Numbered from the stretch's first letter, positions 3,750 through 57,910 are shown. The stretch is 64,000 nt of DNA from a bacterium (GCA_030524675.1 JAUNGE010000004.1:29369-93368), one strand, 5' to 3'. Numbers and translations are program-made. The notes: generated from the letters alone by a model not told the origin.

Positions 3750-4010
3750 GATGTTGGGGTCAAAAGGTATTTTGACCCCTTTGATACCGGATTGCTCCGC
3801 ACTGTGTGCTCCCGCAAGGTCTACGCTCCGCTCCGGTCGGCGCCAAGCAGGCGTCACTGGCGCCTGGCGCCCTAAAAACATTCATAATTCGCTCATTTTT
3901 CTTTGAAAAATGGCTACTTATTCATGTTTTTGGCGGGTCCCAAAGTCAGAAATCCTCTTGAAAGCAAGCTTTCATCAGATTTCTGACCTTTTGACCCTGG
4001 TATCATATCA
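3750..4010. repeat. MITE-like structured intergenic repeat, copy A (261 bp, carries a 55-nt GC-rich insert at 3818-3872)
   Basis: Aligns end to end with 6543-6751. Left end GATGTTGGGGTCAAAAGGTATTTTGACCCC; right end CTGACCTTTTGACCCTGGTATCATATCA. Confidence 0.85.
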
Positions 4011-6542: not shown

Positions 6543-6751
6543 GATGTTGGGGTCAAAAGGTATTTTGACCCCTTTGATACCAGATTGCTCCGCACTGCGT
6601 GCTCTCACAATCTCAAAAACATTCATAATCCGCTCATTTTTCTTTGAAAAATGGCTACTTATTCATGTTTTTGGCGGGTCCCAAAGTCAAAAATCCTCTT
6701 GCAAGCAAGCTTGCATCGGATTTCTGACCTTTTGACCCTGGTATCATATCA
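6543..6751. repeat. MITE-like structured intergenic repeat, copy B (209 bp, reference copy)
   Basis: Imperfect terminal inverted repeats and four internal hairpins. Its right end overlaps the TGA stop of the GH42 gene (6749-6751). Confidence 0.85.
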
Positions 6752-10777: not shown

Positions 10778-13346
10778 TTTCTCTTACCTCCATACCTAAT
10801 TCTTCTTCCGTCAAAAGCTGCTTTAAATAAGGGAAGGCTAAAAACAGGTTCATATAGACCGCTCCTGACGCAGAATCACAGCCCTCTAACTCCATAACTG
10901 GCGCCGGTATCTGCAAAGAATCCACTTTTTTTGCTGTGACTGGCTTTAGCAGCTCTTTCACAGCAATCTGCCATGTTCTTTTTGCCAACTCCTTATCTCC
11001 TGTCTGAAAGGCAGCAAAAGCACTGAGCGGTACAACCATACCAGGCATTCCCCACAACTCTGCCGAAACTGACGGATTCAAGCGTTTTTTCTCTTCCAAT
11101 GGCAGTATATAGTAGGCGCCGTACTCTTCAAGTAATTTGTCAAATTCCTCATTCTGCAGCATATAGGATAATTCCAGCCACACCTGAATGGCGCCAAAAC
11201 AGTTACACATATGATACGATTGATTATTATCTCCCAGATGGATCAGAGAACCTGTTTTCGGATCATATCCGAACATAGGCCCACTGTTTAAACCGGAAGG
11301 AAGCTGCAGCAAGCTGTCGATTCCTGCGAGAATCTTATCTCTGTATCTGGTATCCTGGTATCTCTCCCATTTCGTCATCCAGTTTGCACAATAGGAAGAC
11401 CAATCTGGCGCACTTCTGGCATGAGTCGGACAGCCATCCGGCGTCACAATCGTTCTGAGAGGATCTAAATTTATGGTTGTATAATCCGCATCTGCCACTT
11501 CATCCAGGATTTCTCCCATTCGTTCGTCTCCTGTCAGGTAATACAGGAAACGGTTCAACCCTGCCATACTTATCCTAGGTTCTTTACAGCCACATCCCCA
11601 ATGCACCACATTGTGACGGCTGCCCAGACCTTTATATTCACCAAAATGATACTGGTCAACCTCGCTCCCATGTCTCGTGTAGGCCTCCGCCAATCGAAAT
11701 GCCTCACTGCTCCCGCTGTGGAGGAAAGTATACCACATCCACATATCAGGAATCAGCTCGCTGTTATTCCAGGCACAGCCGCCCAAATCAAATTTCCAGC
11801 AGTGTCTGACTGGATCATAAAATCTCATAATATCGCCATAATTCCAAAAGCCATACCACTCATGCGTCTCTATCTGCTCTTGGAACGCCTGCTGCATCGC
11901 GTTCGCTCTCGTCTCAAACCATGCTCCAAACGCTGTGGACGTATCCTCTGGCTGCCAAGTGCCGAACGCCCTGGCGCTGCTGTAGTATGCCGGTGTACAT
12001 ACTAAAATATCGGGTTTCTGGAGTTTTTGCTCCATTCGCTTCAGTGAGCTGTGAGATGGCGTTGCGTCGCACACAATGAGCGCAAGCTCGGTTGTATTGG
12101 CAATCCCATAAGGGGTACTTCTCATCTCATCAAAGCCTTCATAGCTCGATGCCATATGCGTATCCGTATCGTAATGTCTCAAATCCATGCTCTCGCCATA
12201 TGGAGACCAGAACCAAAGTGTTACTTGCGCCTCTTTTTCCGCCACATGGTACAAATCAACTGCAGCAGGATATTTCTGCCAGAAATTCCTGATTCCAGAA
12301 AAAATTCCTCCGTTTGCCCCTCCCAGATACACACTTCCGTTTGATCGTCTTCCATGTTTGACACTGACCCAGGAACACTGCTTTTTTGTACGTTTCTTAA
12401 TTTGATAATGGCTGGCACTGTCCTGATGGATCCGGTAATCATTCCATACTGCAGAATCCTCCAGCATTTCTGCAAATGTTTGATCGTCCTGGGTAAATTG
12501 AACGTGTTTTCCTTCCATCTGTTCTCTTAACAGCGTCTCATACCGTTCCCTTACCCGAGCAGTTACCAGCATTTTGGGGGATTCTGTCAAAAAGCCAGTA
12601 TCTCCAGAAATACGAACATGCCGGTTGTACAGCTCCCCTTCCATTGCCTGGCAATATCGGAGTCCGATTCCTTTTATGATATCTTTATTTGGATTTCCAT
12701 CATAGAAAAATGTATGGACAATCCGAATTTCAGGACTGTTGCGGTAAAACGTGAGCCTCAGCAAAAAAGGCAGCCATTCCTTCGTCCTTCCACGATATTT
12801 TCCCGTGACTTTCACTACTGTCTTGACTGCGTGATTCTTCTCCAGCACAGCTGAAATCACTTTACTTTCAAACGGTTCATACTGTACCTGTTCTGTGTCT
12901 TTGAAAGTACTTCGGTATTCTTTCACGCTCACTAACATAGCGCTTTGACAAATGAGCCGTTCTCCGATATATAGTTCCTGAAAAATGTCTTTTCCTGCAC
13001 AGGGAATCTTGACACGCATGATTCCATTGCAAATCTGAATAAAATCCTTATATGCCACGCCCATTCCAGCCTCTTTATCGGCTGCCCAAGCTGGTGCGTC
13101 ACAGGGAGCGCTCACCTCATAATATTCTGCCGGACTGGCCTCTGAAATTCCATGGTTTGTCCACTTTATACTTCCATCATCCCAATAAGCCAATACACTG
13201 CTCTGCGTTTCAATCCTGCGCCCCGCAGGATCTTGCATAATCAGCGACTTTTCATTATATAAAATCCCACGATCCCATGGAATGCTGAATGTGCAGGAGG
13301 TTTGCCCTTCTGCCTTCTCTTCCAGCCACTTCAATCTGATTTTCAT
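10767..13346 (-). CDS. large uncharacterised cytoplasmic protein, probable glycan-active enzyme (resembles Bacillus YetA-type proteins from memory; unverified)
   Basis: 859-aa ORF with no signal peptide. ATGA overlap with the regulator gene upstream and overlap with the GH42 gene downstream. The C-terminal half contains WNNSE...HFGEYKGLGSRHNVVHWGCGCKE. Confidence 0.6.
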   Translation of the reverse strand: MKIRLKWLEEKAEGQTSCTFSIPWDRGILYNEKSLIMQDPAGRRIETQSSVLAYWDDGSIKWTNHGISEASPAEYYEVSAPCDAPAWAADKEAGMGVAYKDFIQICNGIMRVKIPCAGKDIFQELYIGERLICQSAMLVSVKEYRSTFKDTEQVQYEPFESKVISAVLEKNHAVKTVVKVTGKYRGRTKEWLPFLLRLTFYRNSPEIRIVHTFFYDGNPNKDIIKGIGLRYCQAMEGELYNRHVRISGDTGFLTESPKMLVTARVRERYETLLREQMEGKHVQFTQDDQTFAEMLEDSAVWNDYRIHQDSASHYQIKKRTKKQCSWVSVKHGRRSNGSVYLGGANGGIFSGIRNFWQKYPAAVDLYHVAEKEAQVTLWFWSPYGESMDLRHYDTDTHMASSYEGFDEMRSTPYGIANTTELALIVCDATPSHSSLKRMEQKLQKPDILVCTPAYYSSARAFGTWQPEDTSTAFGAWFETRANAMQQAFQEQIETHEWYGFWNYGDIMRFYDPVRHCWKFDLGGCAWNNSELIPDMWMWYTFLHSGSSEAFRLAEAYTRHGSEVDQYHFGEYKGLGSRHNVVHWGCGCKEPRISMAGLNRFLYYLTGDERMGEILDEVADADYTTINLDPLRTIVTPDGCPTHARSAPDWSSYCANWMTKWERYQDTRYRDKILAGIDSLLQLPSGLNSGPMFGYDPKTGSLIHLGDNNQSYHMCNCFGAIQVWLELSYMLQNEEFDKLLEEYGAYYILPLEEKKRLNPSVSAELWGMPGMVVPLSAFAAFQTGDKELAKRTWQIAVKELLKPVTAKKVDSLQIPAPVMELEGCDSASGAVYMNLFLAFPYLKQLLTEEELGMEVRENGI

Positions 13347-14668
13347 TCCAGTTCTCCTTTATTTTTTATCCCAAAAGACTTTCTGTACTGCCCTGGTGTT
13401 ACATGCTCCTGTTTATTGAAAAAACGTATAAAATTTTGGGTATTTGTATAATTCAGCTTTTTTGCGATATCCGCGATAGAAAGCTCTGTCTCCAATAAGA
13501 GTTCTTTTGCATACTCCAGCTTCTTGGCTGCAACATAAGCGGTAAAGGATGTATTATTTTCACAGCGCAAAACTCTGCCTATATAGTTCGGATGATAATT
13601 CAATTTTTCTGCACATTCTACCAATGTGATATCTCCTCTTGATTTCTTTATCAGAGCATATACCTTATCCTCAATACTTTGTACATTTTTACTTCTAAAA
13701 ATGATAAGCTGCTCGATGATAGGTGAAATCACATGACCACATACATATTCCTTTATTTTCTGGACATCATAGAGCTGCCAAAAACCCACAAATAAATCCT
13801 GATTATCAAGATTTTCAATTTCTACAATTCCAATTCCGGCATCACTGGCCACTGTGAGAATCGACAGCAACAAGCGCTGCAGGTAATATCTGCGTTCTTC
13901 AGCCGGAATCTTTTTTTCATATAGATTATCTATAAAAATATTCACTGCATCACAGGCTTCTTTTGTCTTGCATAAATCAACAAGCTCTTTAATCTCAGAC
14001 TCCCTGTCTATTGGATAGGCATAGGTATTCTCTGTATTTTCCACAAACTCTGCATACATCATGATTGTAGAATACTTTGTTTGATTGCTGGACTCGCCTG
14101 CCGTATCACTTATTATTTTGGCCGCCTCCACACATTCATGAAGTGCCCTGAAGGTATCTTTAAGAGAGGAAAACTGTCTGCTTACGCCAAACTGCAAGGA
14201 TACTATTTCCTTCTGCTCGAGCAATCTATCCAGTTGAACTTTTATCTCTGAGATTTTCCCGTCCATCTCATAGCTGCTGTCGTCACCAATCAGAAAAACA
14301 ATCATTCGTTCCCACACCATGGGCACTAAGAAAATCTTTTGGTATACTTCCTTCTTAATAAATTCCCTGATTGTAGCCATGAGAATGTTCTTATCAGGCT
14401 CCTGATTCCACTGTGCCTCTGCGACAAACGAAAGAGCCATCATAGAGTAACACGGAAAATATGGTTTTCCAATTTTTTCTAAATAACTGCTGATTTCTTC
14501 CCCGCTTATCGTTCCGCTTAACAATCTGGATACCAAAACCTCTTCCAGCATTTCTTTTTGATAATTGATTGTCTCCTTCATAAAATCAATGTTTTGGGCA
14601 AGGTTTATAACCCCGTCTTCTATATATTGAAAATCATCCGTATCGGTTTGCTGTTCCTGCATGAGCAA
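13343..14668 (-). CDS. AraC-family HTH regulator; apparently the C-terminal part of a frameshifted cache-sensor/AraC one-component regulator
   Basis: C-terminal double HTH (ECAEKLNYHPNYIGRVL...IADIAKKLNYTNTQNFIRFFNKQEHVTPGQYRKSF). The frame stays open upstream of the called TTG start to 14710 and reads IYRPISQLVNKISGLL. Confidence 0.75.
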   Translation of the reverse strand: MLMQEQQTDTDDFQYIEDGVINLAQNIDFMKETINYQKEMLEEVLVSRLLSGTISGEEISSYLEKIGKPYFPCYSMMALSFVAEAQWNQEPDKNILMATIREFIKKEVYQKIFLVPMVWERMIVFLIGDDSSYEMDGKISEIKVQLDRLLEQKEIVSLQFGVSRQFSSLKDTFRALHECVEAAKIISDTAGESSNQTKYSTIMMYAEFVENTENTYAYPIDRESEIKELVDLCKTKEACDAVNIFIDNLYEKKIPAEERRYYLQRLLLSILTVASDAGIGIVEIENLDNQDLFVGFWQLYDVQKIKEYVCGHVISPIIEQLIIFRSKNVQSIEDKVYALIKKSRGDITLVECAEKLNYHPNYIGRVLRCENNTSFTAYVAAKKLEYAKELLLETELSIADIAKKLNYTNTQNFIRFFNKQEHVTPGQYRKSFGIKNKGELE

Positions 14669-14678
14669 GCCAGAAATT

Positions 14679-15596
14679 TTATTTACTAATTGTGATATGG
14701 GACGGTATATTCAAACTTACCAAATACGTAATGCCTGCCCCAAGCAGCATTACCATAATAAGTACAATGGAAAGATTGGCAATCTTTTTTCCTGCCTGCC
14801 AAAGGACCCTGTTTTCATAACTAATCATATAAGTAAACCCATTGACATCTGAGGTTAATTGATTTGTCCGGATTCCATCCATCTGTTTATTTGTTGAAAA
14901 TACAAGCTTTCCTTCTGCATCCAGCACAGTTACTCCATAGCCATCATGATTCTCTGCCAAGTCACGCAAAGATTTCTCTGATATATTGACTATTACCAGA
15001 CATTTAGGTGTATCAGAGGGAACCGGCAACTCAAATGCCATAAAGATTCCCTCTGTATTGATTGTGGTACGCTCCAGACTTTTATCCTCGTTCTGCCTTA
15101 TGTTGTTTACCAGATAAGCAGTCTGCGTCTTATCTTTTTTTACCAGTTCCATGATTTCTTCCTGATTATCCGCTTCTGAAAAACGATACATGCCGCGGTT
15201 ACTTAAAACCCAGTCTGTATCAAAATTCACAAAAGTAAAACCGCTGATATTTCCTTCCAAATAAGAAGGGCCTTTCAGCTGATGGATAGCCTCAACCTGC
15301 ATACTGTAGTCAGAATAATTCATATCTCTTGTCATAATTGCAGTGATTGGCCGAGATACAAATGTCTCCATATAACTGTACTTTATATTTTCCAGAACCT
15401 TCTCTACCTGCCCCTGCACTTCTCGTGCTTTTGCCAAAGCCATGAAATCCATTTGTTCTCTCATTTCTCCAATCGTTACATAGTACGAAAACATACTGAG
15501 TAAAATAATTGGAAAAGCCGCTGCCAGGAACATACCAATTAGCAATTTTGATTTAAAAGGTATATTTGACCACCTGTCTTTTATCGGTAATTTCAT
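14679..15596 (-). CDS. membrane sensor fragment (TM - extracytoplasmic cache-like domain - TM); N-terminal part of the split regulator
   Basis: 305 aa. TM1 is LLIGMFLAAAFPIILLSMFSYYV and TM2 is LSIVLIMVMLLGAGITYLVSL. The ORF stops 10 codons after TM2, 10 nt before the AraC ORF begins. Confidence 0.7.
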   Translation of the reverse strand: MKLPIKDRWSNIPFKSKLLIGMFLAAAFPIILLSMFSYYVTIGEMREQMDFMALAKAREVQGQVEKVLENIKYSYMETFVSRPITAIMTRDMNYSDYSMQVEAIHQLKGPSYLEGNISGFTFVNFDTDWVLSNRGMYRFSEADNQEEIMELVKKDKTQTAYLVNNIRQNEDKSLERTTINTEGIFMAFELPVPSDTPKCLVIVNISEKSLRDLAENHDGYGVTVLDAEGKLVFSTNKQMDGIRTNQLTSDVNGFTYMISYENRVLWQAGKKIANLSIVLIMVMLLGAGITYLVSLNIPSHITISK

Positions 15597-15697: not shown

Positions 15698-17275
15698 TTA
15701 TTCAGCCTTCTGCTGATCTGCCTGGTACTGCTCATTTATTTCTTCTATCATCTTGCTTCCCCCTTGAGCTGCCCAGTTATCCCATGCATCCTGCAAACCT
15801 TTTTCATCAATTTGGCCTACAATATATTTTGTTCTCGCCTCCTGTAAAATACTCTCAAGTGAAGCGCCATTCATACTAAAGGTTTCTGAATTGTTCAGAT
15901 ATCCAATGGCAGGATTAAATTTGACAATTTTTTCTGCATCTGCTTCTAATTGTTCAAAAATCTTTCTCCGCTCATCTTTCTGAAGAGGTGGATCCGTTTC
16001 AATCACATTCGGAAGAATGGAACCCAGCTGGTTCAAACCGGTATACGCCTTGCTCGCTGCCTTGTCATCCACATCAAGGTCAACCAAATATCCGTCTTTC
16101 TCCTCCCAATGAATACCCTCTAGCCCATAATTTATCAGCATAACCATCTCATCATCATTCATTTTGTCAAGGAACTGCAGACATTTCATGACATCCTCTT
16201 CCGTTTTAACCGCCTTTGTTATGGTGAAAATTCCACCATATCCAGCTAATGCCAGGCTGCTTGGCTCGCTGTTCTCATCTTTTGCAAGCCCATTCATCAA
16301 CTTCATGGATGCCAAACCATCACCTGTGACTGCTGGTATTTCGTTTGTCACAAAATAATCCCAGACCTTTCTGGCATTACCAATCGTATCCACCAGAACA
16401 CCACACTGGCCATTATACATACCATCAATCCAAGTATTTGTATCCCGCACTGCGAAATCTGAATATATCAGCCCATCCTCATACATCTTACGGAACCATC
16501 TCAGAGCATCCATATATTCTTCTGTCTGATGAACAGGAATCATTTCTCCCTCTTCTTCGACCCAGCCGTTCCCACAGCCAAACCATGTCTGCATAATATC
16601 AAATGGCCCCATATATTTGCACAGACAAATTCCATATGTGTCATCTTTCCCATTTCCATCTGGGTCTCCATATGTGAATTGATAGCACATATTGTAGAGA
16701 TCTTCCACAGTTTTTGGCTCCTCCAAGCCAAGTTTATCTGCCCAGTCCTGGCGATAGCCCCAGCCATATCTTCCCACTGGCTTAGATGTATAAACCCCAA
16801 GAAGCTTGCCATCGACGGTGATGGCTTTATTTACATTCGGGTTTGCTTTCGATAAGTTCGGTAATTTTTCGGCATCTGTTATTAAGTCTGCCACATCCCA
16901 AAAGGCGCCGGCTTTTGCTGCTGAAATGACACCAGAATTCAGCTTAACATACATAATCATCGGCATATCGTCTCCCTGCGCCAATGTAATTCCCATCTTA
17001 TCCTCATAAGTATCAGAAGGAACCCACTGAATTTCCAGGTCGCAGTTAGTGTACTCCTCGATTCTGTTCATCACTTCGTCTGCGTATTCTCCTGAGTTAG
17101 GAGACCCCTCAAAATCCTGAATCATAACGCTGACTTTGAATTTTTCATCTCCCCCGTTCGCATCCTTGCCGCCTGCAGCAGTATTGTTTGACGCTGTCTC
17201 ACCGCCGCATCCTGCAAGTGCAGTTACAGACAACACCATTGCGAGACCTGCCGCCAATATTCTTTTCGATTTCAT
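15698..17275 (-). CDS. sugar ABC transporter substrate-binding lipoprotein (LplA-like, family 1)
   Basis: Start moved to MKSKRILAAGLAMVLSVTALAGCGG (lipobox), preceded by AAAGGAAATAGGTAT. The 24-codon upstream extension of the ORF runs through a repeat relic. Confidence 0.85.
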   Translation of the reverse strand: MKSKRILAAGLAMVLSVTALAGCGGETASNNTAAGGKDANGGDEKFKVSVMIQDFEGSPNSGEYADEVMNRIEEYTNCDLEIQWVPSDTYEDKMGITLAQGDDMPMIMYVKLNSGVISAAKAGAFWDVADLITDAEKLPNLSKANPNVNKAITVDGKLLGVYTSKPVGRYGWGYRQDWADKLGLEEPKTVEDLYNMCYQFTYGDPDGNGKDDTYGICLCKYMGPFDIMQTWFGCGNGWVEEEGEMIPVHQTEEYMDALRWFRKMYEDGLIYSDFAVRDTNTWIDGMYNGQCGVLVDTIGNARKVWDYFVTNEIPAVTGDGLASMKLMNGLAKDENSEPSSLALAGYGGIFTITKAVKTEEDVMKCLQFLDKMNDDEMVMLINYGLEGIHWEEKDGYLVDLDVDDKAASKAYTGLNQLGSILPNVIETDPPLQKDERRKIFEQLEADAEKIVKFNPAIGYLNNSETFSMNGASLESILQEARTKYIVGQIDEKGLQDAWDNWAAQGGSKMIEEINEQYQADQQKAE

Positions 17276-17294
17276 ATACCTATTTCCTTTCTTA

Positions 17295-17321
17295 GATGTT
17301 GGGTCAAACCGTATTTTTCCC
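17295..17321 (+). repeat. relic of the MITE left-end motif
   Basis: GATGTTGGGTCAAACCGTATTTTTCCC compared with the consensus GATGTTGGGGTCAAAAGGTATTTTGACCCC. Intergenic, between the permease and SBP genes. Confidence 0.5.
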
Positions 17322-17349
17322 TTTTTGTTTATAGTTTTTTCGGGCACAC

Positions 17350-18255
17350 TCAGCCCTTTACAGCTCCTATCATTGCACCTTTTGTAAAATATTTCTGTAT
17401 AAATGGATATACCAGCAGAATCGGTACCGTTGCCACTACTGTCACCGCCATTTTTACAGCTTTATCCGGAGGTGCTCCCAGTGTTCCATAATCCAGCATA
17501 CTGCCATCCGTCGCAACACCATTAGCCAACAAAACAACTCTTCTCAAAACAATCTGAATCACTTCCATTTTCGGATTTGAGATATACATCATAGGCGCAA
17601 AATAGTCGTTCCAATGACCTACTGCATAAAACAGAGAAATGGAAGCTAACACCGGTTTTGACAGTGGAAGAATGATTTTCGCAAATATCCAAAAATCATT
17701 GCAGCCATCCATAATTGCTGCCTCTTCCAATTCCTTCGGAATCCCTTCAAAAAAGTTCTTCACAATAACCAAATTAAAAGCACTGATTGCCCCAGGCAGA
17801 AACAATGCCCAATATGTATTTAACAAATGCATATTTTTAATTACAAGGAAGCTTGGTATCATGCCTCCTGAAAACACCATTGTCACGATAACAAGATTCA
17901 GGATAATGTTTCTTCCTTTAAAATCCTTTTTTGACAAAGGATACGCAAACGTTGTAGTAAAAAGCATGTTGATTGCTGTTCCTACCAGAGTCACAAAAAT
18001 GGAATTCCTAAGCCCTCGGAATGTTTCTCCGGTTTCCATGATAAATTTATATGCATTGAATGATATTACCCGCGGTATGATAAAAAATGGCCTCTCAACA
18101 ATTTCTTTTTCCGTCGCAAAGGATCCCGCCACAATATATAAAAAGGGGAGTACTGTTGAAATTGCAAAACCTGTCAGTACAACATAAATGATAACCTGAA
18201 CCACCTGGTCTCCAAAACTTCTCTTGATTTTTGTATGTTTCTTTCCCATATTCAA
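17350..18255 (-). CDS. carbohydrate ABC transporter permease (LplC/YtcP-like)
   Basis: About 300-aa polytopic ORF. Start is TTG at 18255 or ATG at 18249, both downstream of AGGAGGTG. Confidence 0.85.
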   Translation of the reverse strand: MNMGKKHTKIKRSFGDQVVQVIIYVVLTGFAISTVLPFLYIVAGSFATEKEIVERPFFIIPRVISFNAYKFIMETGETFRGLRNSIFVTLVGTAINMLFTTTFAYPLSKKDFKGRNIILNLVIVTMVFSGGMIPSFLVIKNMHLLNTYWALFLPGAISAFNLVIVKNFFEGIPKELEEAAIMDGCNDFWIFAKIILPLSKPVLASISLFYAVGHWNDYFAPMMYISNPKMEVIQIVLRRVVLLANGVATDGSMLDYGTLGAPPDKAVKMAVTVVATVPILLVYPFIQKYFTKGAMIGAVKG

Positions 18256-18273
18256 ATCTCACCTCCTGCTGAC

Positions 18274-19209
18274 TTAATATATTCCTGACTCACCGCACAT
18301 TTTTGCGACTTTGTTCGCTCCCAAAACCATAATCATACTGATTACAGATTTAAAAAGACCCACTGCCGTACTATAGGAATATTGGCCTTGTATAATTCCT
18401 TTTGTGTAAACATAAGTATCAAATACTTCGGCCACGCTTCTGTTCAGGTCATTGCTCATGAGGTAAATCTGTTCATATCCTGTATTGAGGATGGAACCAA
18501 CACGCAGAATCAGCATAATAACAATAGTTCCTCGTATAGCTGGCAATGTAATATGCCACATCAAGCGCCATCTTCCTGCTCCGTCCACTTTTGCAGCCTC
18601 GTACAATTCCATATCAACGCCAGACAATGCAGCCAGGAATATAATGGTTCCATATCCGGTTTCCTTCCACATGCTCTGCCCTATAATCATACCTCTGAAA
18701 TACTCCGGAGATGCGAGTATATCAATGCTTTTGCCCGTAATATTCAGCAACAGCTCATGAAGAATGCCATTGTTAATATTGAAAAGCGTATAGGTCAAAC
18801 TTGCTACAATGACAAAAGAAACAAAATGCGGAATATAAACAAGTGTTTGAATGACTCTCTTATACCCCAGACTCTTTATTTCATTTAATAAGAGCGACAC
18901 AATAATTGGAAGTGGGAAATAAAAAATCAAGTTGAGCAGGGAAATTGCCAATGTGTTTTTTAACAGCATCCAAAAATCAGGGCCAATAAAAAAATTTTTA
19001 AAATGGGTGAGACCTACAAATGGACTTCCCAAAAATCCCTGGAATGGATTGTAATTTTGAAAAGCAATGACTACTCCCAGCATTGGTACATACTTAAATA
19101 TAATAAAAAACAATGCTCCTGGCAGAAACAGCAAGTATAGCCATATATGCGTTTTCACATAACGCACAAACCCACACCCTTTTGAGTTAGACTTTGCTAC
19201 GGATTCCAT
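18274..19209 (-). CDS. carbohydrate ABC transporter permease (LplB/YteP-like)
   Basis: Start moved to MESVAKSNSKG (ATG 19209), preceded by AAAGGAGGTTTTC. Polytopic, with the EAA-like region YEAAKVDGAGRWRLMWHITLP. Confidence 0.85.
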   Translation of the reverse strand: MESVAKSNSKGCGFVRYVKTHIWLYLLFLPGALFFIIFKYVPMLGVVIAFQNYNPFQGFLGSPFVGLTHFKNFFIGPDFWMLLKNTLAISLLNLIFYFPLPIIVSLLLNEIKSLGYKRVIQTLVYIPHFVSFVIVASLTYTLFNINNGILHELLLNITGKSIDILASPEYFRGMIIGQSMWKETGYGTIIFLAALSGVDMELYEAAKVDGAGRWRLMWHITLPAIRGTIVIMLILRVGSILNTGYEQIYLMSNDLNRSVAEVFDTYVYTKGIIQGQYSYSTAVGLFKSVISMIMVLGANKVAKMCGESGIY

Positions 19210-19445
19210 GAAAACCTCCTTTTTGTTATTTCTTTTCATTTTCCAAACCGAATTCGTTTTGTTTTGTGCAATCAGCATATCATATACCCAATTATCATCG
19301 CAATAATCATAATAAAACCTATTAATTTCTGCCTTATAGAGCATGATTTTGTACGATTCTCACAGTTTTTGCAAAAAATTGTTTCCTTTTTGTCTAAATA
19401 TTTCAAATTGGAATGGGCAACTATATGTTCCTATTTTTCATGACA

Positions 19446-19511
19446 ACAGGGAAGTTTTCTTTGTATCCCACATGAAATTCTTCACATGCATACAAAAGAA
19501 AACTTCCCTGT
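19446..19511. other. long hairpin (about 21-bp stem) downstream of the helicase gene; possible terminator without a clear U-tract
   Basis: ACAGGGAAGTTTTCTTTGTAT...ATACAAAAGAAAACTTCCCTGT. Shares sequence blocks with the hairpin at 24924-24982. Confidence 0.5.
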
Positions 19512-19542
19512 ACTTTATTTACTCTTATGTCTTTTTATCCTG

Positions 19543-22500
19543 TCACTGGATACGTTCTTTTCTTTTCAGATAAATAGTGGGCAGCAGCACCGCTGTCTCA
19601 TGTTGGTCTTTTTCCCCCTTCCACGCGACAACAAAGCGGACTTCTGCGGCATATGGTTCATATCCGTTTTTCTCAAGCCTCTCCAGATTCGCATTGCAGG
19701 CCCTGGATAACTTTGCTGCCGGCTGCACACGCCCTGGCTGTAGGTTTTCTGGCTGCCGCCTTTCCGACTGCGGAGTGGTTTCTGCCATCAGATACCCGTT
19801 TTTCAAAGACAGCGGATGACCGCTGTGCAATTTGAAAATCAGCTCTTTCTTCCCTTTAAAAAAGTCCAGCACCACATCCCTGTGCGTCAGCTGCAGCGCA
19901 ATCTCTTCCGGCGGTGCATAGGAGCACGTATCTTCCACTTTCTCCACACCAGGAACCTTTAGAAAATCAAACAAAGTTCCATTATAATGAATATACAGTG
20001 CATGTTTTGCTCTTGTCATGCCCACATACAGTTTCCTCCTGTCCTCATCCCGCTGCACCGATACCTGATTCAGCATCATATACACGGTGTCAAACTCACG
20101 CCCTTTTGCCTTGTGGATGGTCGAGACATACATACAGTCCTTTCTGTCCGAATAAAAGTCTTCAAATTTCGACTCTCTGATAAACTCCTCCAGGTCACTC
20201 CTATATTTTGCCGGATAAATCTTCTCAAAATCAGTCAGCATGTTCATGCAGTTTTCGAGGCAGGTGCTGTCGGCATACACTGTGCTCAACCGGTTCTTTG
20301 CGGTCTGCCACAGCAAATTCGAAATCACAGGGGAAGTCAGCCTTTTGTCAATGATGGTGAGAAAGAACCGGATTTCCACCAAATTATAAAGTGAGAATCC
20401 ATCCATGGACTGAATCAGCTTTGCCCGAATTCCCTTCTGAAGCAGACCACCCAGAATGCAGAGCGCCTCATCGTTCGTGTTTGTCAAAATACAGGCTTTT
20501 CCGCCCTCATAGGTGCGCACCACCTGCGCAATCACTGGTTCTTCCAGATGCATCCCACTGTGATGGACCAGCTGCACGATGCCGTCTTCTTTCTGCACCG
20601 CTATAGCCTGGTTTGTCTTCATGCGGTTTCTGAGAGTCTTTGCAAACACATTGGAGAACGCGATGATATTGGCCTTACTTCTGTAATTTTCGTTCATCTC
20701 ATAGAGGGTGGCGCCGTACTCTGTCACAAACGACTTCAAATATCTGGAGTCTGAGCCGCGGAATTCATAGATATTCTGGTCATCATCCCCGACCGCAATC
20801 ACTCGCATCTCCTCATTTCGCTGCATCAGGGCCTCAATCAGTGCAAACTCGTTCTCATCCATGTCCTGCGCTTCGTCAATCACCAGAACACTCTTGGAAA
20901 TCCTGCCTGGCTCCACCTCGCCGTTTCGAATCAGCTCGGTCGCGTTTTTGACGACATCCTCTACACCCTCCAGGCTTCCGATTTTTCCCAGAAGGTCAAA
21001 ACAGTAGGAATGAAATGTCTTGATATCCACAAATCCGGCGGCATTTCCAATCAGAGCGAGCAGGCGCTTTTTGAACTCCGTCGCAGCCGCGCGCGAAAAT
21101 GTGACCATCAGAAGTTGGTCGTGCTTCACATCCTCGAGCAGAAGCAGGGATGCCAGTTTATGGACAAGCACGCGGGTTTTTCCGCTCCCTGGCCCTGCTG
21201 CCACCACAATATATTTTGACTGTGCATCATGGATGATACCAGACTGCACCTCGGACAACTCACAGAACAGCTTTTTATATTTTTCCGGTGTGATATTCCG
21301 GTCAATCTCCTTCGCGCGCTCTCCCTTAAAATACCTGGAAATAAATTTTTTAAAATCCATCTGAAAATAGTCCTGCACAAACTGCAGAGCCGCATCGTAG
21401 TCGCGCACCATCAAGTTCGCATACTCTCCCACAATGTGAATCTGGCGAATTTTCTGCCTGTAAAACTCATCCAGCATCCGGTAATCATCCACCTTGTAGC
21501 GGATTTTGTTGTCAAACACTTTTCGTTTGATTTCCATTGCATTGTACAGAACCAGAAAACCGCCCTCCAACCGCATGGCACCGATTTTGGAGAGATACAG
21601 CAGTGCGTCCTCCATGTCGGCCAGAGTCACTGGTGCCGTCCCTACATCCAGCCTCGGGGTATCTCTGTACTCCTGATACAGTCCCAACAGGGAAAACTGC
21701 ACCAGAACTTCTTCCGTATCGCCCGTGCGGGGTATGGTGCGTCTCGCTTTCTCAAAGAGATTTTCCACAATAAAATGACAGATATCGATTCTCCGGTAAA
21801 ATTTCTCCAGCATTTTTTCAGGCTCTAAGGCAGGCGATGTCTGTATGTACTGCTGGGCGCTGTTCTCCTGCTTAAAAATATAATTCTTTATTGTCAGATA
21901 ATACAGAATCGTGCGGATATTTTTCACGCTCGAGGATGATACGCCCGCCTGAATCGCCTCCCCGTTCAGCTCCTTTAAGTGCAGCTCGCAGCCTTCCTTT
22001 CCAATCCGCGAGAAAACAAACTGCTCCAAGTGAGCGAACTTGTCCAGAACCTGTGCTGTTTTATTCTCGGAATCGCTGCGCAGGATATAGGCTGACATAT
22101 CCCTGGAATCCGCCAGCAGACCGTCCTCACGCATCCGGTTCACTGCCTCAATCACTTCCTCCTTCGTCAATCCGAGCGTGTCTGCCAGATAGTCGATGCG
22201 CGACTCTGCTTCCTCATTTCCCGCTTTCGCAATGCTGCGGCTGGAAATCAGCGATTTTATGATGCGTCTGGCATTCTGCCTCTCGCTGTCAGAGGTAAAC
22301 AGCGGCGACATGTCAATGCGACAGCCCGCCTCCTCCATATTTTTCGCGAGAATGCTGGTCGCGTAGACTCTGGGAACATTATTTCCGCGCGTGATGTATC
22401 CTGCTGTCTCCAGCGCCGCGATGGCAGTCTTCACTCTCGTCTCGATATCCACGCCCGTGTCATCCCAGCCAGCCTGTCTGGCAATTTCTAACGGGGAGCA

Positions 22501-24438
22501 GCAGATACGGGGACGTTGTTTTGTCAGGTCTTTTATCGCCTTCCAGACCTGCTGAATTTCACTCATGCTCAGTTTGGTCTGATTCAGCAGAATAAAATGC
22601 TTGTCGAGGTCGCTGTCATTGAACAAAACATAGCAGTCCGCCTGCAGAGACGGATCGCGCCCTGCTCTCCCTGCCTCCTGCACGTAGTTTTCCAGGGAGT
22701 CCGAGATGTCATAGTGAACCACCAGGCGGACGTCCTTCTTGTCAACGCCCATACCAAAGGCGGAAGTTGCCACAATGACCTGTATTTCATTGCGGATAAA
22801 CGCCTCCTGATTGGCAATTTTGTCTTTGGCATCCATCTTTCCATAGAAGGGTTTCGCCGTAAATCCGTCATTTGTCAGCTTCTCCGCGAGTGCTTTCGTG
22901 CGCTTCGTCCTAGAAACGTACACAATCGCAGGGCAGTTTTTCTGCTCAATCAGACTGCGCAGGGCAATGTATTTCTCCTCCTCCGTTTCCTTGTACAGCA
23001 CAGTATAATGCAGGTTTTCTCTCGCTGCCGAGGAAGTAAACAGCTCCAGGTCCAGATCCAGTTTTTTCTTAAAATAGTCACAGATATCGGTGATAACTTT
23101 CTGTTTTGCCGTTGCGGTAAAGCAGGAGACAGAAACCGGTGTTTCGTCCTGCTTTTTTTCCTGGAGTTTCCGTATAAAATCTCCGATATACAGGTAGTCC
23201 ACGCGAAAATCCTGTCCCCAGGCCGAAAAGCAGTGTGCCTCATCGATGACAAAACGCACAATATTCCGAGACAGCAGCATTTTTTCGACCGTTTTTGAGC
23301 GCAGCTGTTCCGGCGAAATATACAGAAGACTGGCAGAGCCATTCTCCACACGCCGATAGGCATCGGCGCGCTCAATCGGACTCAAAAGCCCATTCACAGT
23401 CACAGCATCCACAATGCCGATTCGATTCAGATTGTCCACCTGGTCTTTCATTAACGACTGCAGCGGCGAAATCACGACTGTCAGGCCATGGCAGGCATGT
23501 CCCGCCATCAGAGCGGGCAGCTGAAATGTGATGGATTTGCCGCCTCCTGTCGGAAACACCGCGAGAAGTGACTTTCCATCCACGGCGGCCTGCGCTGCCT
23601 GTTCCTGCAGCGGTTCTCCCTGATAGGTGCGGAAATTGTCATAGCCAAAATACTGTTTCAGGCCCTTATGGACATCGAGCTGACTGTCACAGTAGGGACA
23701 GCCCTCTTTGCAGGGAGTATTGCGCAGCACCTTCATCACATTTTCAATCCTTGGATAATTCTTCAGAAGCCATGGCGGTGTGATGGAGTGAGCATCTCCG
23801 GTTCCGATGAGTGACAGCGTGTAGGCGAGCTCGACCGGATACTGCTTTATCAGCGCGCCAATGTCGGCATTCGTACACAGCATCCCATCGTACTCTTTCA
23901 GAATGAGCGACAGCGTGTCAAAGACATAGGGCCGAAAATCCACGTAGGCAAAAAAGTCTCTGAACTCCTCATGTGCATGCAGAAGACTGTAAAAAATCTG
24001 CTGTATTTTAAATGGCAGCGCGCTGAACACATTCACTTCATCATAGAACAAATCCTCCGCCTTCTTTGCATCGTTGACCGGATTATTCAACTCCTCCACC
24101 TGCAGCTTGTCGTCTTTCAAAAGTGCGTGATAGGGCTTTCTCGGAAATAAAAGAGGCGACCAGTACAAAGTGTCAATCACCCGCATGCGGTCTGCTTTGC
24201 TTGTATCTAAGTGCATATCAAAGTTTCTATCAAAACTCATATGAGGCATCAGATATTTCAAGTCATGGTGAATCACGTTATGTCCGCACAAGAACTGCGA
24301 TCCGGCAAGGAAAGCAGAAAAGTCGGATACTTTTGGAGAGTGAAATACTACACCGTCACTTCTGACTGCCCCTATGTCATATATTTTCTTGTCCTCCGCA
24401 CCAATCTCACTGTCAATAAAGATAATCGTTTTCCTCAT
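19543..24438 (-). CDS. three-domain fusion protein: DEDD-type 3'-5' exonuclease + RecQ-family helicase + UvrD/PcrA-type helicase (1631 aa)
   Basis: Start moved to MRKTIIFIDSE (ATG 24438) after AAGGAGGGG. Exonuclease motifs: IIFIDSEI, GHNVIHHDLKYL. RecQ motifs: FPTGGGKS, FVIDEAHCFSAWGQDFRVDY, QEAGRAGRD. UvrD motifs: AAGPGSGKT, VLVIDEAQDMD, VGDDDQNIYEFRGS, TIHKAKGREFD, LYVGMTRAKHAL. Confidence 0.85.
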   Translation of the reverse strand: MRKTIIFIDSEIGAEDKKIYDIGAVRSDGVVFHSPKVSDFSAFLAGSQFLCGHNVIHHDLKYLMPHMSFDRNFDMHLDTSKADRMRVIDTLYWSPLLFPRKPYHALLKDDKLQVEELNNPVNDAKKAEDLFYDEVNVFSALPFKIQQIFYSLLHAHEEFRDFFAYVDFRPYVFDTLSLILKEYDGMLCTNADIGALIKQYPVELAYTLSLIGTGDAHSITPPWLLKNYPRIENVMKVLRNTPCKEGCPYCDSQLDVHKGLKQYFGYDNFRTYQGEPLQEQAAQAAVDGKSLLAVFPTGGGKSITFQLPALMAGHACHGLTVVISPLQSLMKDQVDNLNRIGIVDAVTVNGLLSPIERADAYRRVENGSASLLYISPEQLRSKTVEKMLLSRNIVRFVIDEAHCFSAWGQDFRVDYLYIGDFIRKLQEKKQDETPVSVSCFTATAKQKVITDICDYFKKKLDLDLELFTSSAARENLHYTVLYKETEEEKYIALRSLIEQKNCPAIVYVSRTKRTKALAEKLTNDGFTAKPFYGKMDAKDKIANQEAFIRNEIQVIVATSAFGMGVDKKDVRLVVHYDISDSLENYVQEAGRAGRDPSLQADCYVLFNDSDLDKHFILLNQTKLSMSEIQQVWKAIKDLTKQRPRICCSPLEIARQAGWDDTGVDIETRVKTAIAALETAGYITRGNNVPRVYATSILAKNMEEAGCRIDMSPLFTSDSERQNARRIIKSLISSRSIAKAGNEEAESRIDYLADTLGLTKEEVIEAVNRMREDGLLADSRDMSAYILRSDSENKTAQVLDKFAHLEQFVFSRIGKEGCELHLKELNGEAIQAGVSSSSVKNIRTILYYLTIKNYIFKQENSAQQYIQTSPALEPEKMLEKFYRRIDICHFIVENLFEKARRTIPRTGDTEEVLVQFSLLGLYQEYRDTPRLDVGTAPVTLADMEDALLYLSKIGAMRLEGGFLVLYNAMEIKRKVFDNKIRYKVDDYRMLDEFYRQKIRQIHIVGEYANLMVRDYDAALQFVQDYFQMDFKKFISRYFKGERAKEIDRNITPEKYKKLFCELSEVQSGIIHDAQSKYIVVAAGPGSGKTRVLVHKLASLLLLEDVKHDQLLMVTFSRAAATEFKKRLLALIGNAAGFVDIKTFHSYCFDLLGKIGSLEGVEDVVKNATELIRNGEVEPGRISKSVLVIDEAQDMDENEFALIEALMQRNEEMRVIAVGDDDQNIYEFRGSDSRYLKSFVTEYGATLYEMNENYRSKANIIAFSNVFAKTLRNRMKTNQAIAVQKEDGIVQLVHHSGMHLEEPVIAQVVRTYEGGKACILTNTNDEALCILGGLLQKGIRAKLIQSMDGFSLYNLVEIRFFLTIIDKRLTSPVISNLLWQTAKNRLSTVYADSTCLENCMNMLTDFEKIYPAKYRSDLEEFIRESKFEDFYSDRKDCMYVSTIHKAKGREFDTVYMMLNQVSVQRDEDRRKLYVGMTRAKHALYIHYNGTLFDFLKVPGVEKVEDTCSYAPPEEIALQLTHRDVVLDFFKGKKELIFKLHSGHPLSLKNGYLMAETTPQSERRQPENLQPGRVQPAAKLSRACNANLERLEKNGYEPYAAEVRFVVAWKGEKDQHETAVLLPTIYLKRKERIQ

Positions 24439-24499
24439 CCGAATCCCCTCCTTATTTCTTCTTATGGTATTTTGCTGCTTTTGAATATGGAATATCTCC

Positions 24500-24528
24500 A
24501 TTGTATGGGAACCTTTTAGAACAATCAA
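24500..24528 (-). promoter_or_regulatory. candidate sigma-A promoter of the helicase gene
   Basis: In the minus sense: TTGATT, 17 nt, TACAAT, about 60 nt upstream of the ATG. Confidence 0.4.
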
Positions 24529-24590
24529 TGAAAATCGTGTGAATTTATGTCAATTTTTTCTCTTTTTTGTTTTTTTGCTCTTTTTGTCCC

Positions 24591-24788
24591 AAAATCATTC
24601 ATAATCCGCTCGCTTCGCCCATTCCATGTTCCAACGTCACCGCGCTCTCGCTCAATGAAGAACACAGCAGACACTAGGCTCGAAAATACCCACTCTGTGA
24701 ACTTTTTCACTAAGCTCGTAGAAAACCTCGCTAAGTGTTCAATGCTTCGCCAAGCGCTGGTGTTCTTCAATGGAATTCCATTTGGAGG
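24591..24788. repeat. mosaic repeat: a 21-nt core shared with the MITE (24591-24611) joined to a copy of the long-hairpin element (24629-24788)
   Basis: AAAATCATTCATAATCCGCTC matches the MITE interior AAAAACATTCATAATCCGCTC. The remainder aligns with the reverse complement of 29366-29527 apart from a 38-nt internal duplication. Confidence 0.7.
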
Positions 24789-24914
24789 TTTCTACCATTC
24801 GCTGCAAATTATATCAGATGTAAGACTGCATTTTCCCATACTATGAATTTGTCGTTCACCATTTAACATTCCACATCTGTGATATATAATTATATCCGTG
24901 ATACATGATACTTG

Positions 24915-24995
24915 TAAAAAAATATACAGGGCAGTTTTCCAAGTCATGCATAAAAGAATGCACATGAAACACTGCCCTGTATGTTCTATTTTTTG
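24915..24995. terminator. bidirectional rho-independent terminator (serves the ABC-F gene on the minus strand)
   Basis: ATACAGGGCAGT...ACTGCCCTGTAT stem, with an A-run on one side and a T-run on the other. Confidence 0.7.
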
Positions 24996-29134: not shown

Positions 29135-29343
29135 GATGTTGAGGTCAAATATAAAATTTGACCTTTGATATCACGAATTGCTCCGTGCTTCGCACTCACG
29201 CAATTCTAAAACACGCCAAATCCGCTCATTTTTCTACGAAAAATGGCTACTTTTTGGTGTTTTGGCGGGTCAACTGGACAAAAATCCTCCTGCAAGCAAG
29301 CTTGCATCGGATTTTATGTCTATTTGACCCTGATATCTATACA
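29135..29343. repeat. MITE-like structured intergenic repeat, copy C (divergent, about 209 bp)
   Basis: Collinear with copy B, with many substitutions that preserve the hairpins (for example GAATTGC...GCAATTC and GTGC-TTC-GCAC). Confidence 0.8.
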
Positions 29344-29365: not shown

Positions 29366-29527
29366 GGGCCGCACAAGCCAGATGCAGTTCCAAACGGCAG
29401 CCCATTGGAAAACGCCAGCGCTTAGTGAGAAGCCTCACGAAGTGAGGGTTCGAGCTTAGCGTCTGCTGCGTTTTTCATTGGAGCGAGAGCGTGGTGCCGT
29501 TGGAATCCTGCTCTGGCAAAGCGGCCC
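29366..29527. repeat. long-hairpin element (about 160-bp imperfect palindrome)
   Basis: GGGCCGC...GCCAGATGCAG-TTCCAAACGGCA...CCATTGGAAAACGC pairs with GCGTTTTTCATTGG...TGCCGTTGGAA-TCCTGCTCTGGC...GCGGCCC. Homologous copy at 24629-24788. Confidence 0.75.
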
Positions 29528-56998: not shown

Positions 56999-57910
56999 TT
57001 ACTTCACAAAACTAAACTTCAGTTTTCCACTCTTCTTTCCATTCGGTTCCACGAAAAGCAGTCCAGACTCCTTCTGATATCCCTTTTGATACAGGTTAAA
57101 ACAGTCTGTAGAACAAGTCTGGTTTTCCACGCAGAAGAAATGATTTTTCGGAGTGAACACAACCACATGCGTGAAGTCCTTTGTCGCGTCAATCTCCACC
57201 GTAAACGCATCATAATACAGGCGAATGGGTTCCTTCTCATGATAATCTGTATAAACATGGTCCAAATCGAGAGATTCCACGGAAACCGGTTTTCTCAACT
57301 CCACACCCGTCTCCTCCATCGGAATCAGTTTTCCGGTAGGAATCTTTTCCTCCGTCATCTCCATGTAGGAATCCACCGGAACAGAAATCTTTACATCCTG
57401 TCCATTTTTTGTGAAAAACGGATGAATGGCAATGCCATACGGAAGTTCTTTTTCACTCTCCTTATTTTCCACCTCATATTCCCAGTTTAACACATTTTTG
57501 CGGATGGAAACGCGGATGCGTAAAACACTGTGAAATGGAAACATGAAAAATTCTTCCTGGCTCTCATCCCAGCGCAGGCTGCCCTCCAAAACCGCCTCAT
57601 TTTCCAGACAGAGCTCCTTCGTCACAGCAAACGGCAGGCGGCGCACCACGCCGTGCATTCTAGCGTCATATGCATCCTCGCCGATGTGGATTTTCAGACC
57701 ATCGCTGCGGTTCGGAGTTGGATAGAGAACCGGAACCCCATATGTTACTCCATTCTCAAATCGCGTATCGTCCCAAGCGATAATCTGCTGCCCCTCAAAC
57801 GCAATGCCATATACATTCATGCCATCCTCCGGACACACCCACGCCTCCATCTGCTCTCCAATCAATTTATAAATCTCTTTTCCCTTAAACTCACTTTTCT
57901 CGATTTTCAT
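56999..57910 (-). CDS. aldose 1-epimerase family protein
   Basis: Start moved to MKIEKSEFKGKEIYKL (ATG 57910) after AAAGGAGA. The upstream part of the 408-aa ORF runs through a repeat and the neighbouring gene. Confidence 0.75.
   Translation of the reverse strand: MKIEKSEFKGKEIYKLIGEQMEAWVCPEDGMNVYGIAFEGQQIIAWDDTRFENGVTYGVPVLYPTPNRSDGLKIHIGEDAYDARMHGVVRRLPFAVTKELCLENEAVLEGSLRWDESQEEFFMFPFHSVLRIRVSIRKNVLNWEYEVENKESEKELPYGIAIHPFFTKNGQDVKISVPVDSYMEMTEEKIPTGKLIPMEETGVELRKPVSVESLDLDHVYTDYHEKEPIRLYYDAFTVEIDATKDFTHVVVFTPKNHFFCVENQTCSTDCFNLYQKGYQKESGLLFVEPNGKKSGKLKFSFVK

Follow-up and report, generated by a model that had tools for sequence, protein, structure and literature searches.

The window analyzed here is a stretch of 64,000 nucleotides of bacterial DNA (GCA_030524675.1, JAUNGE010000004.1:29369-93368). 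Its minus strand carries a large open reading frame (ORF) encoding a protein of 1631 amino acids, in which a nuclease-like domain is joined to two helicase motors of different superfamilies (SF), SF2 and SF1A. Read from the N-terminus, the protein consists of a DnaQ-like, exonuclease-like domain, a helical subdomain with four cysteines (Cys4), a RecQ-type SF2 motor, about four predicted winged helices and a compact UvrD-type SF1A motor; a domain of about 140 residues forms the C-terminus. The ATPase and helicase motifs of both motors are intact and the gene is a singleton. Its relatives are spread across phyla without synteny and are frequently placed beside defence or mobile genes. The coding sequence and its parts are listed below, with positions counted from the first letter of the window.

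19543-24438, minus strand: whole coding sequence, 1631 amino acids plus stop, from the ORF list and translation (ATG at 24438, stop codon at 19543-19545)
24013-24438, minus strand: residues 1-142, DnaQ-like (DEDD-type) 3'-5' exonuclease-like domain, from the predicted fold and conserved acidic residues
23653-24012, minus strand: residues 143-262, helical subdomain, from the secondary structure of the model and invariant columns
22519-23652, minus strand: residues 263-640, RecQ-family SF2 core, from Pfam, NCBIfam and motifs
21259-22518, minus strand: residues 641-1060, about four predicted winged-helix (wHTH) domains and a helical linker at about 945-1060, from weak Pfam matches, AlphaFold and Foldseek
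19978-21258, minus strand: residues 1061-1487, compact UvrD/PcrA-like SF1A core, from Pfam and motif positions
19546-19977, minus strand: residues 1488-1631, conserved C-terminal domain, from the alignment

An earlier note, made from the sequence alone, had described a 1631-amino-acid fusion of exonuclease, RecQ and UvrD modules at 19543-24438 and had named no strand. The interval was correct, the ORF is real and uninterrupted, and the strand is now given as minus. All 12 peptide motifs quoted there were found in the expected order. A TTG-initiated start giving 1661 amino acids was rejected; it had no ribosome-binding site and was not backed by the relatives. The exact 1631-amino-acid protein is present in public assemblies. 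Furthermore, a public contig (L113) is 100% identical to window positions 16543-24658, and strain L114 shares 95.6% identity across 15 kb with the gene order kept, including the position of the helicase gene. The ORF is therefore not an assembly artefact.

Both motors were complete, as had been claimed. In the RecQ core, Pfam DEAD matched residues 276-448 and Helicase_C residues 489-594, and the NCBIfam model TIGR00614 (recQ_fam) scored 286.4 bits against a cut-off of 219.8, which places the core in the RecQ family. Its motifs are motif 0 (FRTYQGEPLQ), Walker A (PTGGGKS), the DEAH box with the aromatic loop (DEAHCFSAWGQDFR, the loop following DEAH being CFSAWGQDFR), TATA, VATSAFGMGVDK and QEAGRAGRD, all of them intact and invariant across the family. 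The equivalog models for RecQ itself scored far lower than their cut-offs (TIGR01389, 325 vs 640.2 bits; PRK11057, 256 vs 1015 bits), and RecQ_Zn_bind, RQC and HRDC were absent among the Pfam hits at E<=0.01.

The UvrD-like core retains motifs I, Ia, II (DEAQD), III, IV, V and VI. Four Pfam families exceeded their cut-offs here: PF00580 UvrD-helicase (116.6 bits, cut-off 23), PF13361 UvrD_C (78.8, cut-off 25.6), PF13245 AAA_19 (80, cut-off 25.1) and UvrD_C_2. With about 427 residues the module is compact; the core of E. coli UvrD has about 640. The NCBIfam ortholog models gave low scores throughout, namely 129 vs 911 bits for pcrA, 119 vs 1144 for uvrD, 98 vs 951 for rep and 48 vs 419 for HelD. 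Judged from these profiles, the protein is a RecQ-family and UvrD-like SF1A helicase at the domain level and an ortholog of none of RecQ, UvrD, PcrA, Rep, HelD and DpdF. Characterized members of both motor families move 3'->5'.

In PADLOC, 76 families were matched, and the best 25 matches were all DpdF, PsyrT, GajB, RTasHel or putative alternative Cas3. At the domain level the RecQ core (residues 255-640) matched best to DpdF (326 bits) and PsyrT (272 bits), and the UvrD-like core (residues 1060-1490) to GajB (up to 156 bits) and RTasHel. By profile, both motors are closest to helicases from defence systems, the RecQ part to DpdF and PsyrT and the UvrD part to GajB.

The assignment of the N-terminal domain relies on its fold, since sequence searches of Pfam and PDB gave nothing significant. 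For residues 1-262 no Pfam hit was obtained even at E<=10, the models RNase_T, DNA_pol_A_exo1 and DNA_pol_B_exo1 being unmatched, and no significant PDB match was found by single sequence or by a profile of 38 sequences. An AlphaFold model of the N-terminus, built from 38 diverse relatives, reached a predicted local distance difference test (pLDDT) value of 88 and a predicted template modelling score (pTM) of 0.87, and shows the strand and helix order of DEDD exonucleases. Its top 23 Foldseek matches were all exonuclease domains or exonuclease-containing polymerases, with modest scores (E 5e-3 to 0.2, probability up to 1.0). The best one was S. aureus DinG (8zef; E 5e-3, probability 1.0), and E. 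coli Pol II, archaeal PolB, Pol alpha and RNase AS were matched as well, with ExoI lower in the list. Five of the 38 relatives matched DNA_pol_B_exo1 weakly (best E 0.0018).

The exonuclease motifs were recognized as D9/E11 (Exo I), N54..H58-D59 (Exo II) and N118-N119..D123 (Exo III). D9 and E11 are part of strand 1 (residues 5-12), and D59 and D123 are found close to where helices 55-66 and 120-140, respectively, begin; these residues were located by motif and secondary structure, not by coordinate superposition. All four are invariant or at least 90% conserved across the family, and the acidic ligands of the ExoDinG exonuclease have the same placement (PMC11981726). The fifth catalytic position is an Asn instead of His or Tyr, in the spacing N118-x4-D123 and N119-x3-D123. 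N118 is invariant and N119 at least 90% conserved. The loop 99-119, which carries both of them together with invariant Y103 and H104, was modelled poorly.

As modelled, the domain adopts the DEDD-type fold and retains its metal ligands, and the residue at the general-base position is non-canonical. Exonuclease activity is plausible and not assured, because the canonical His/Tyr is replaced. Of the DEDD exonuclease first proposed for the N-terminus, the fold and the four acidic ligands stood up, whereas neither a library match nor the His/Tyr was found. The earlier note had also named a degenerate module as a finding that would speak against its proposal; both helicases are intact, and the exonuclease-like domain keeps its four acidic residues but not the canonical His/Tyr. 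In the adjoining subdomain (residues 143-262), which forms a helical bundle, C188, C243, C247 and C250 are invariant and constitute a probable metal site.

Between the motors, a stretch of about 330 residues had been described as free of recognizable motifs. Its length is rather about 420 amino acids (residues 641-1060). The statement on motifs held insofar as no significant Pfam or PDB match was obtained, by the region alone or as a profile, but the model resembles tandem winged helices, which we take as the predicted structure of the region. Weak Pfam wHTH matches were found at about 750-778. The AlphaFold model (pLDDT 69) shows four helix-helix-helix-hairpin units followed by long helices, and its weak Foldseek matches were all winged-helix proteins, namely RPC62 (which has four winged helices), PadR, MarR, MecI and ORC. 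The helical linker at about 945-1060 is highly conserved according to the conservation profile.

The last 144 amino acids are likewise conserved, for example in VVLDFFK and VAWKGE-D-ET; they matched nothing in Pfam or PDB, alone or as a profile. A lineage-specific insertion of 13 residues (19729-19767, approximately residues 1558-1570, within TTPQSERRQPENLQPGRVQP) is located in a loop of this domain. It was absent from the 17 relatives aligned with the protein of the window; P0002, which is 87% identical and was not part of that alignment, is also longer at this position.

A whole-protein search yielded more than 120 full-length homologs of 1595-1764 amino acids (mostly about 1600) with 65-96% identity, annotated, where named, as 'RecQ family ATP-dependent DNA helicase'. 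When one genome per species was scanned, at least 595 species genomes, spread over Clostridia, Bacteroidales and Verrucomicrobiota, carried a relative. The best 80 of these were full-length with 54-67% identity. They belonged to Clostridia (Oscillospiraceae, Lachnospiraceae, Ruminococcus, Butyrivibrio), Bacteroidales (Bacteroides, Phocaeicola, Prevotella/Segatella, Muribaculaceae, Alistipes), Opitutales and Kiritimatiellia. Most of them were sampled from gut or rumen. A profile of the N-terminal domain retrieved 1722 clusters at 50% identity, 396 of them at E<=1e-30. Since the best 150 of the 1722 clusters were all proteins of about 1600 amino acids or fragments thereof, the domain appears to be bound to this architecture. 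Distant relatives with 30-35% identity over residues 1 to about 1283 or 1487 were found on plasmids of Aliarcobacter, Allochromatium, Cereibacter, Thiothrix, Croceicoccus and Rhizobium.

We infer that the family has been exchanged horizontally between lineages. An Opitutales copy, located on a 309-kb contig, shares 86.6% identity with one from Clostridia (L016 vs L010), and copies from Subdoligranulum and Christensenellaceae are 96% identical (L011 vs L032). A pair from Lachnospiraceae and Prevotella with 96.5% identity (L088 vs L084) comes from contigs of under 10 kb; faulty binning may account for it. Furthermore, an identical protein of 1614 amino acids (P0060) occurs in two unrelated contexts. 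These share just a 6.7-kb segment with 99.8% identity (L001 8480-15206 and L002 8481-15205), in which a truncated MFS gene is present together with a tRNA-Pro located 330 nucleotides upstream, and could reflect either a recent transfer or an assembly chimera. Stretches of 67 and 195 nucleotides flanking the P0060 gene recur side by side at L002 18617-18905.

The genomic context of the relatives was surveyed in 81 species-level loci, taking neighbours within five genes. The largest neighbour cluster was present in 5 of the 81 loci, and no conserved small ORF (25-90 amino acids, within 700 nucleotides) was found beside the gene, in agreement with the absence of partner genes proposed before. A syntenic core context had been set beforehand as the outcome that would disprove the proposal; no conserved neighbour was seen in the 81 loci.

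Many of the neighbours are candidate defence genes or mobility genes. Among the 127 immediate neighbours the Pfam families AAA_14/DUF4143, ResIII, SLFN_AlbA_2 with HATPase_c_4, Fic, AAA_5 and SWI2_SNF2 were found, and the PADLOC matches at this distance comprised REase_I (7e-278), PDC-S01, PDC-S05, SoFic, PbeA, mREase_IV and REase_II. The 118 neighbours one gene further away added mREase_IV (1e-193), AbiEii (1e-95), IetA, AbiLi, HEC-06 and PDC-M10A; PDC-S04 was also among the matches at these two distances. These matches were strong and specific, in contrast to the generic ATPase matches in a control of 47 genes, the other genes of the window.

Single loci illustrate the pattern. In a complete Oscillospiraceae genome the relative (P0086) lies in a defence island: it starts 24 nucleotides past a GmrSD gene, and a type III restriction-modification system, a serine recombinase and an integrase are close by. 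A 16.6-kb serine-recombinase element (L115 2354-18979), which splits cotJC, a gene for Mn-catalase, into fragments at 1967-2353 and 18980-19228, holds P0048 as cargo. The element also carries ParB, RepA_N, MobC/NikA, an MNT/HEPN-like pair, Fic, AAA_14 and DUF6076, and adjoins cas4-cas1-cas2. P0022 is located in a region resembling an integrative and conjugative element (ICE), next to Macro, ADP-ribosylglycohydrolase, ParA-like, TTRAP and YodL/LPD18 genes. On plasmids, the Allochromatium copy adjoins a type I restriction-modification system and an integrase, and the Aliarcobacter copy adjoins ParAB, a replication initiator and a type IV secretion system coupling protein. In a record of Bacteroides finegoldii a relative lies among plasmid-type genes (SSB, ParA/ParG). 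Among annotated phage records, none was found with a full-length copy. Full-length relatives were present on 12 IMG/VR contigs whose viral nature is unconfirmed; the flank of one checked contig matched just unannotated faecal 'Bacteriophage sp.' contigs.

Two general features of the loci were considered and rejected. SOS control was discarded, as no Cheo/LexA box (GAAC-N4-GTTC) was present within 400 nucleotides upstream in any of the 81 loci; this is a Firmicutes motif and says little for Bacteroidales. A tRNA-linked island is not a general feature either, because a tRNA within about 1.5 kb was found just at the P0060 loci and at 3 of 57 other scanned loci. Very large ORFs (1438-2029 amino acids) were seen near some relatives (L057 7003-11634, L018 830-6919, L051 2142-6491, L054 1705-6021, L069 3436-7770). 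In L057, an ORF of 1543 amino acids begins 100 nucleotides downstream of the helicase relative.

In the window, the helicase gene has on one side a gene for an ABC-F ATPase, beyond which GH77 amylomaltase and HAD genes lie, and on the other a sugar ABC transporter operon together with an AraC-type regulator and a PcRGLX-type gene. This stand-alone placement is as first described. The 47 other genes of the window are ordinary genes of carbohydrate and amino-acid metabolism, with PADLOC matches that were merely generic cross-hits of ABC ATPases; no PADLOC partner gene was among them, and no tRNA lies within the window. The obligatory partners with which the helicases of Dpd, PsyrTA, Gabija and DRT operate were not found among the ABC-transport, GH77 and HAD genes next to the helicase gene, nor was any conserved in the 81 loci. 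Presence/absence polymorphism at the site was dismissed: no empty site was found, and the related strains, which had been identified by way of the helicase gene, keep the same context. In this genome the gene appears to be a stable, separately transcribed singleton.

Some further observations concern the surroundings. No record was found of the flanking ABC-F protein. In four public runs, with relatives of the helicase and ABC-F genes 88-97% identical, no contig covered the sugar ABC operon (17000-19340), and the contigs cease aligning at 19557. In these more distant strains synteny seems to break right past the stop codon of the helicase gene, whereas the 95.6% identical strain retains the operon. 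The AraC-type regulator (HTH_18; 13343-15596, minus strand) is a single gene of 752 amino acids in L114 and is split here into ORFs of 305 and 441 amino acids by a frameshift near residue 297 to 305, which may indicate a pseudogene or a sequencing error.

Transcription and translation signals around the gene, and the repeat fragments upstream of it, are the following.

24445-24453, minus strand: Shine-Dalgarno sequence AAGGAGGGG, 6 nucleotides 5' of the ATG, read from the sequence
24500-24528, minus strand: promoter-like TTGATT-17-TACAAT, 9 of 12 consensus matches
24889-24918, minus strand: stronger promoter-like match TTTACA-18-TATAAT, 11 of 12 consensus matches
19447-19511, minus strand: long perfect-stem hairpin of 64 nucleotides, starting 32 nucleotides past the stop codon (RNA folding, -35.5 kcal/mol, z-score -7.95)
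24576-24790, strand not assigned: dispersed intergenic repeat fragments with counterparts at 29389-29505 and 6600-6635, in the flanks of Clostridiales-1 RNA copies

The TTGATT-17-TACAAT site, which had been named as the gene's own promoter, exists, but it matches 9 of 12 consensus positions only, the site at 24918-24889 matches 11, and promoter-like sites were not commoner here than in shuffled sequence in a consensus scan. An own promoter is therefore no more than plausible. The hairpin past the stop codon is the likely transcript end, but it has no clear T tract and was not flagged by a simple terminator scan. The ABC-F gene upstream terminates in its own hairpin, and a monocistronic helicase transcript would agree with both flanking hairpins. 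Metatranscriptome contigs derived from a relative span 20963-24208, most of the gene, a weak sign which hints at expression of the relative. A match to Rfam n00280 ('C. difficile sRNA included into helicase gene') at 19976-20090, minus strand, inside the UvrD-like coding region, is most likely due to chance (25.7 bits vs a gathering score of 65.2, E 0.86).

Upstream of the helicase gene lies a spacer of 610 nucleotides. The repeats in it (24576-24790) consist of inverted fragments of the flank sequence at 29389-29505 and a 36-nucleotide piece resembling 6600-6635. The public contigs of the same or a close strain stop within them, L113 at 24658 and the alignment of L114 at 24590. The claim that the gene is bordered by repeats holds for the upstream side; downstream there is the strong hairpin and no repeat. 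A two-ended repeat element enclosing the gene was consequently rejected for the window, the fragments being confined to the upstream side. Three copies of Clostridiales-1 RNA (Rfam RF01699) are located in intergenic positions on the minus strand (6575-6746, 29166-29338 and 3782-4005; 137, 112 and 91 bits vs a gathering score of 48), each within a longer dispersed repeat, and a degenerate further copy of the associated repeat is present at 57885-58021.

We regard the protein as a candidate for an accessory, horizontally exchanged helicase-nuclease which would act alone on foreign phage or plasmid DNA, with a probability of roughly 0.45. This reading is favoured because of the context pattern of the relatives, their carriage in elements and on plasmids, the lack of an SOS box, and the defence helicases which are the closest profile relatives of the motors. 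In such a mechanism, the winged-helix array and the C-terminal domain would recognize a DNA end, a nick or a branched replication intermediate. The RecQ-type and UvrD-type motors, fuelled by ATP, would unwind or reel in the DNA, and the N-terminal DEDD-type domain may trim or degrade the 3' strand, or hold it. As a result, the replication intermediates of the invader would be degraded or their use blocked. A more specific proposal is put forward tentatively, namely that gut and rumen anaerobes would possess in this family a new, widespread immune system made up of a single gene, combining an SF2 and an SF1A motor with an Asn-type DEDD exonuclease for the partner-free destruction of invader intermediates. 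The earlier note had wavered between a defence-like role and one in repair or replication restart. The three-module architecture and the stand-alone status on which it built were found again, and the defence role is suggested by the genomic context.

Several points weigh against a role in defence. Two motors of like expected polarity in one chain have no worked-out precedent, and the nuclease step may not exist because the usual His/Tyr is missing from the exonuclease. No PADLOC model spans the full-length protein, and literature searches found no report on any family member or on the architecture, which is no proof of absence. The neighbour survey consists of family counts with a small 47-gene control and holds no per-gene enrichment statistic. 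Moreover, ordinary carbohydrate genes surround the gene in the window, and the 95.6% identical strain has it at the same position; P0030, P0077 and one P0060 locus are found in metabolic or housekeeping surroundings as well. Finally, the near-constant length, the 55-70% identity over 1600 amino acids and the mean column identity of 73% are more typical of a gene under housekeeping-type constraint than of an immune gene that evolves fast.

The most serious alternative, although less probable, is a role in repair. Here, the protein would be an accessory enzyme of host genome maintenance, a bacterial counterpart of WRN or ExoDinG, with the mobile contexts being incidental. It would handle stalled or reversed forks, R-loops or recombination intermediates and, in the same chain, strip proteins or RecA in a UvrD-like manner. 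The layout of exonuclease, RecQ core and winged helices parallels WRN, and homologs of RecQ and UvrD are well known as helicases of repair and anti-recombination. ExoDinG, a fusion of a DEDD exonuclease with an SF2 helicase, is the best structural match of the N-terminal domain and has been implicated in the relief of replication stress (PMC12525004). Strong conservation and uniform length would be expected of such an enzyme, and the window, P0030 and one P0060 context represent chromosomal regions without a defence character, the gene of the window keeping its position between strains. However, the family is distributed patchily and without synteny, no context being conserved in the 81 loci, copies are carried in the serine-recombinase element, in ICE-like regions and on plasmids, and restriction and Abi genes are frequent neighbours. 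In addition, there is no LexA-type box upstream, the equivalog cut-offs of RecQ, UvrD and PcrA are missed by a wide margin, and the protein lacks RQC-Zn and HRDC.

A further alternative concerns the nuclease domain and is compatible with a role in defence, in repair or in the service of mobile elements. The N-terminal domain could be a catalytically dead exonuclease fold that binds 3' ends or single-stranded DNA, which would make the protein a pure dual translocase or remodeller. The general-base position is taken by the invariant N118 and the near-invariant N119 in a poorly modelled loop, and no exonuclease family model reaches its threshold. In Klenow-type exonucleases, however, loss of the Tyr lowers activity and does not abolish it, and the invariant Y103 and H104 of the same loop could substitute as general base. 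A review has proposed a similar loss for 'pExoDinG', which has a degenerate DEDDy core (PMC11981726). Yet pExoDinG lost two of the acidic residues (PMC11981726), whereas D9, E11, D59 and D123 are invariant or nearly so across this family. On balance, a dead domain appears unlikely.

That the protein serves the mobile elements which carry it and not the host, for instance by processing incoming single-stranded DNA at plasmid or ICE establishment, removing host proteins, countering restriction or excluding competitors, is improbable: the Aliarcobacter plasmid copy, the plasmid-type genes in Bacteroides finegoldii, the mobilizable serine-recombinase element, the ICE-like region and the 12 IMG/VR contigs would suit it, but most of the 81 loci have no adjoining mobility genes, the window has none, no annotated phage genome holds a full-length copy and the viral nature of the IMG/VR contigs is unconfirmed. 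The mobile contexts as such do not separate this idea from defence, because defence genes are common cargo of these elements.

If the protein does act in defence against foreign DNA, it would represent a mechanistically unusual immune system in which a single chain holds two motors of different helicase superfamilies. It would be common in Bacteroidales and Clostridia, dominant and poorly explored groups of the gut, and would bear on phage therapy and on the spread of plasmids in the microbiome. If it acts in repair, it would amount to a bacterial version of the exonuclease-helicase WRN, extended by a UvrD motor, and could serve as a model for the coordination of exonuclease and helicase. In either case, a family present in at least 595 species and labelled just 'RecQ family ATP-dependent DNA helicase' merits its own family model and name.

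Compared with known systems, the protein resembles WRN in having an N-terminal DnaQ-like 3'-5' exonuclease fold, a RecQ-family core and winged-helix modules in one chain. WRN, in contrast, is of the DEDDy type with a Tyr and has RQC (Zn and winged helix) and HRDC domains. In the protein described here, Asn takes the fifth position, and Zn-binding and HRDC domains were not detected. It has a helical insert with the Cys4 site and about four winged helices, to which a UvrD motor and the C-terminal domain are added. There is no evidence for common descent of the two beyond the shared domains. ExoDinG (DinG of S. aureus and B. subtilis) likewise fuses an exonuclease, a helical bundle and an SF2 helicase (PMC11981726), with 8zef as the best structural match of our N-terminal domain. 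It differs in its XPD/DinG-type helicase, its catalytic His (DEDDh) and the lack of a second motor, and the sequence identity is about 14-17%.

The UvrD-like module matches the profiles of GajB from Gabija, and relatives of the gene are found in defence islands. GajB, however, partners with the OLD-family nuclease GajA, which is absent here, and the match is limited to residues 1060-1490. For the RecQ core, the best PADLOC matches are DpdF of the Dpd system (7-deazaguanine DNA modification and restriction) and PsyrT/RqlH, a RecQ-like toxin of PsyrTA/RqlHI, both restricted to residues 255-640. The NCBIfam model of DpdF gave 217 bits vs a cut-off of 550 and the other dpd genes are absent, as is the partner PsyrA/RqlI.

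RecBCD, AddAB and AdnAB also combine two motors and a nuclease in one machine for the processing of DNA ends, and RecBCD destroys phage DNA as well. These are multi-subunit enzymes with SF1 motors only, of opposite polarity in RecBCD, and PD-(D/E)XK nucleases, whereas our protein is one chain with an SF2 RecQ-type and an SF1A UvrD-type motor, probably both moving 3'->5', and a DEDD-type domain. Nhi, Hna, type II Mokosh and DdmD are large, stand-alone helicase-nuclease proteins of defence islands with other helicase families and nucleases. Their models were absent among the best 25 PADLOC matches and, to our knowledge, none of them has two motors of different superfamilies. The family is a widespread, generically annotated and uncharacterized helicase-nuclease fusion, set apart from the systems compared here by its domain families and by their union in a single chain.

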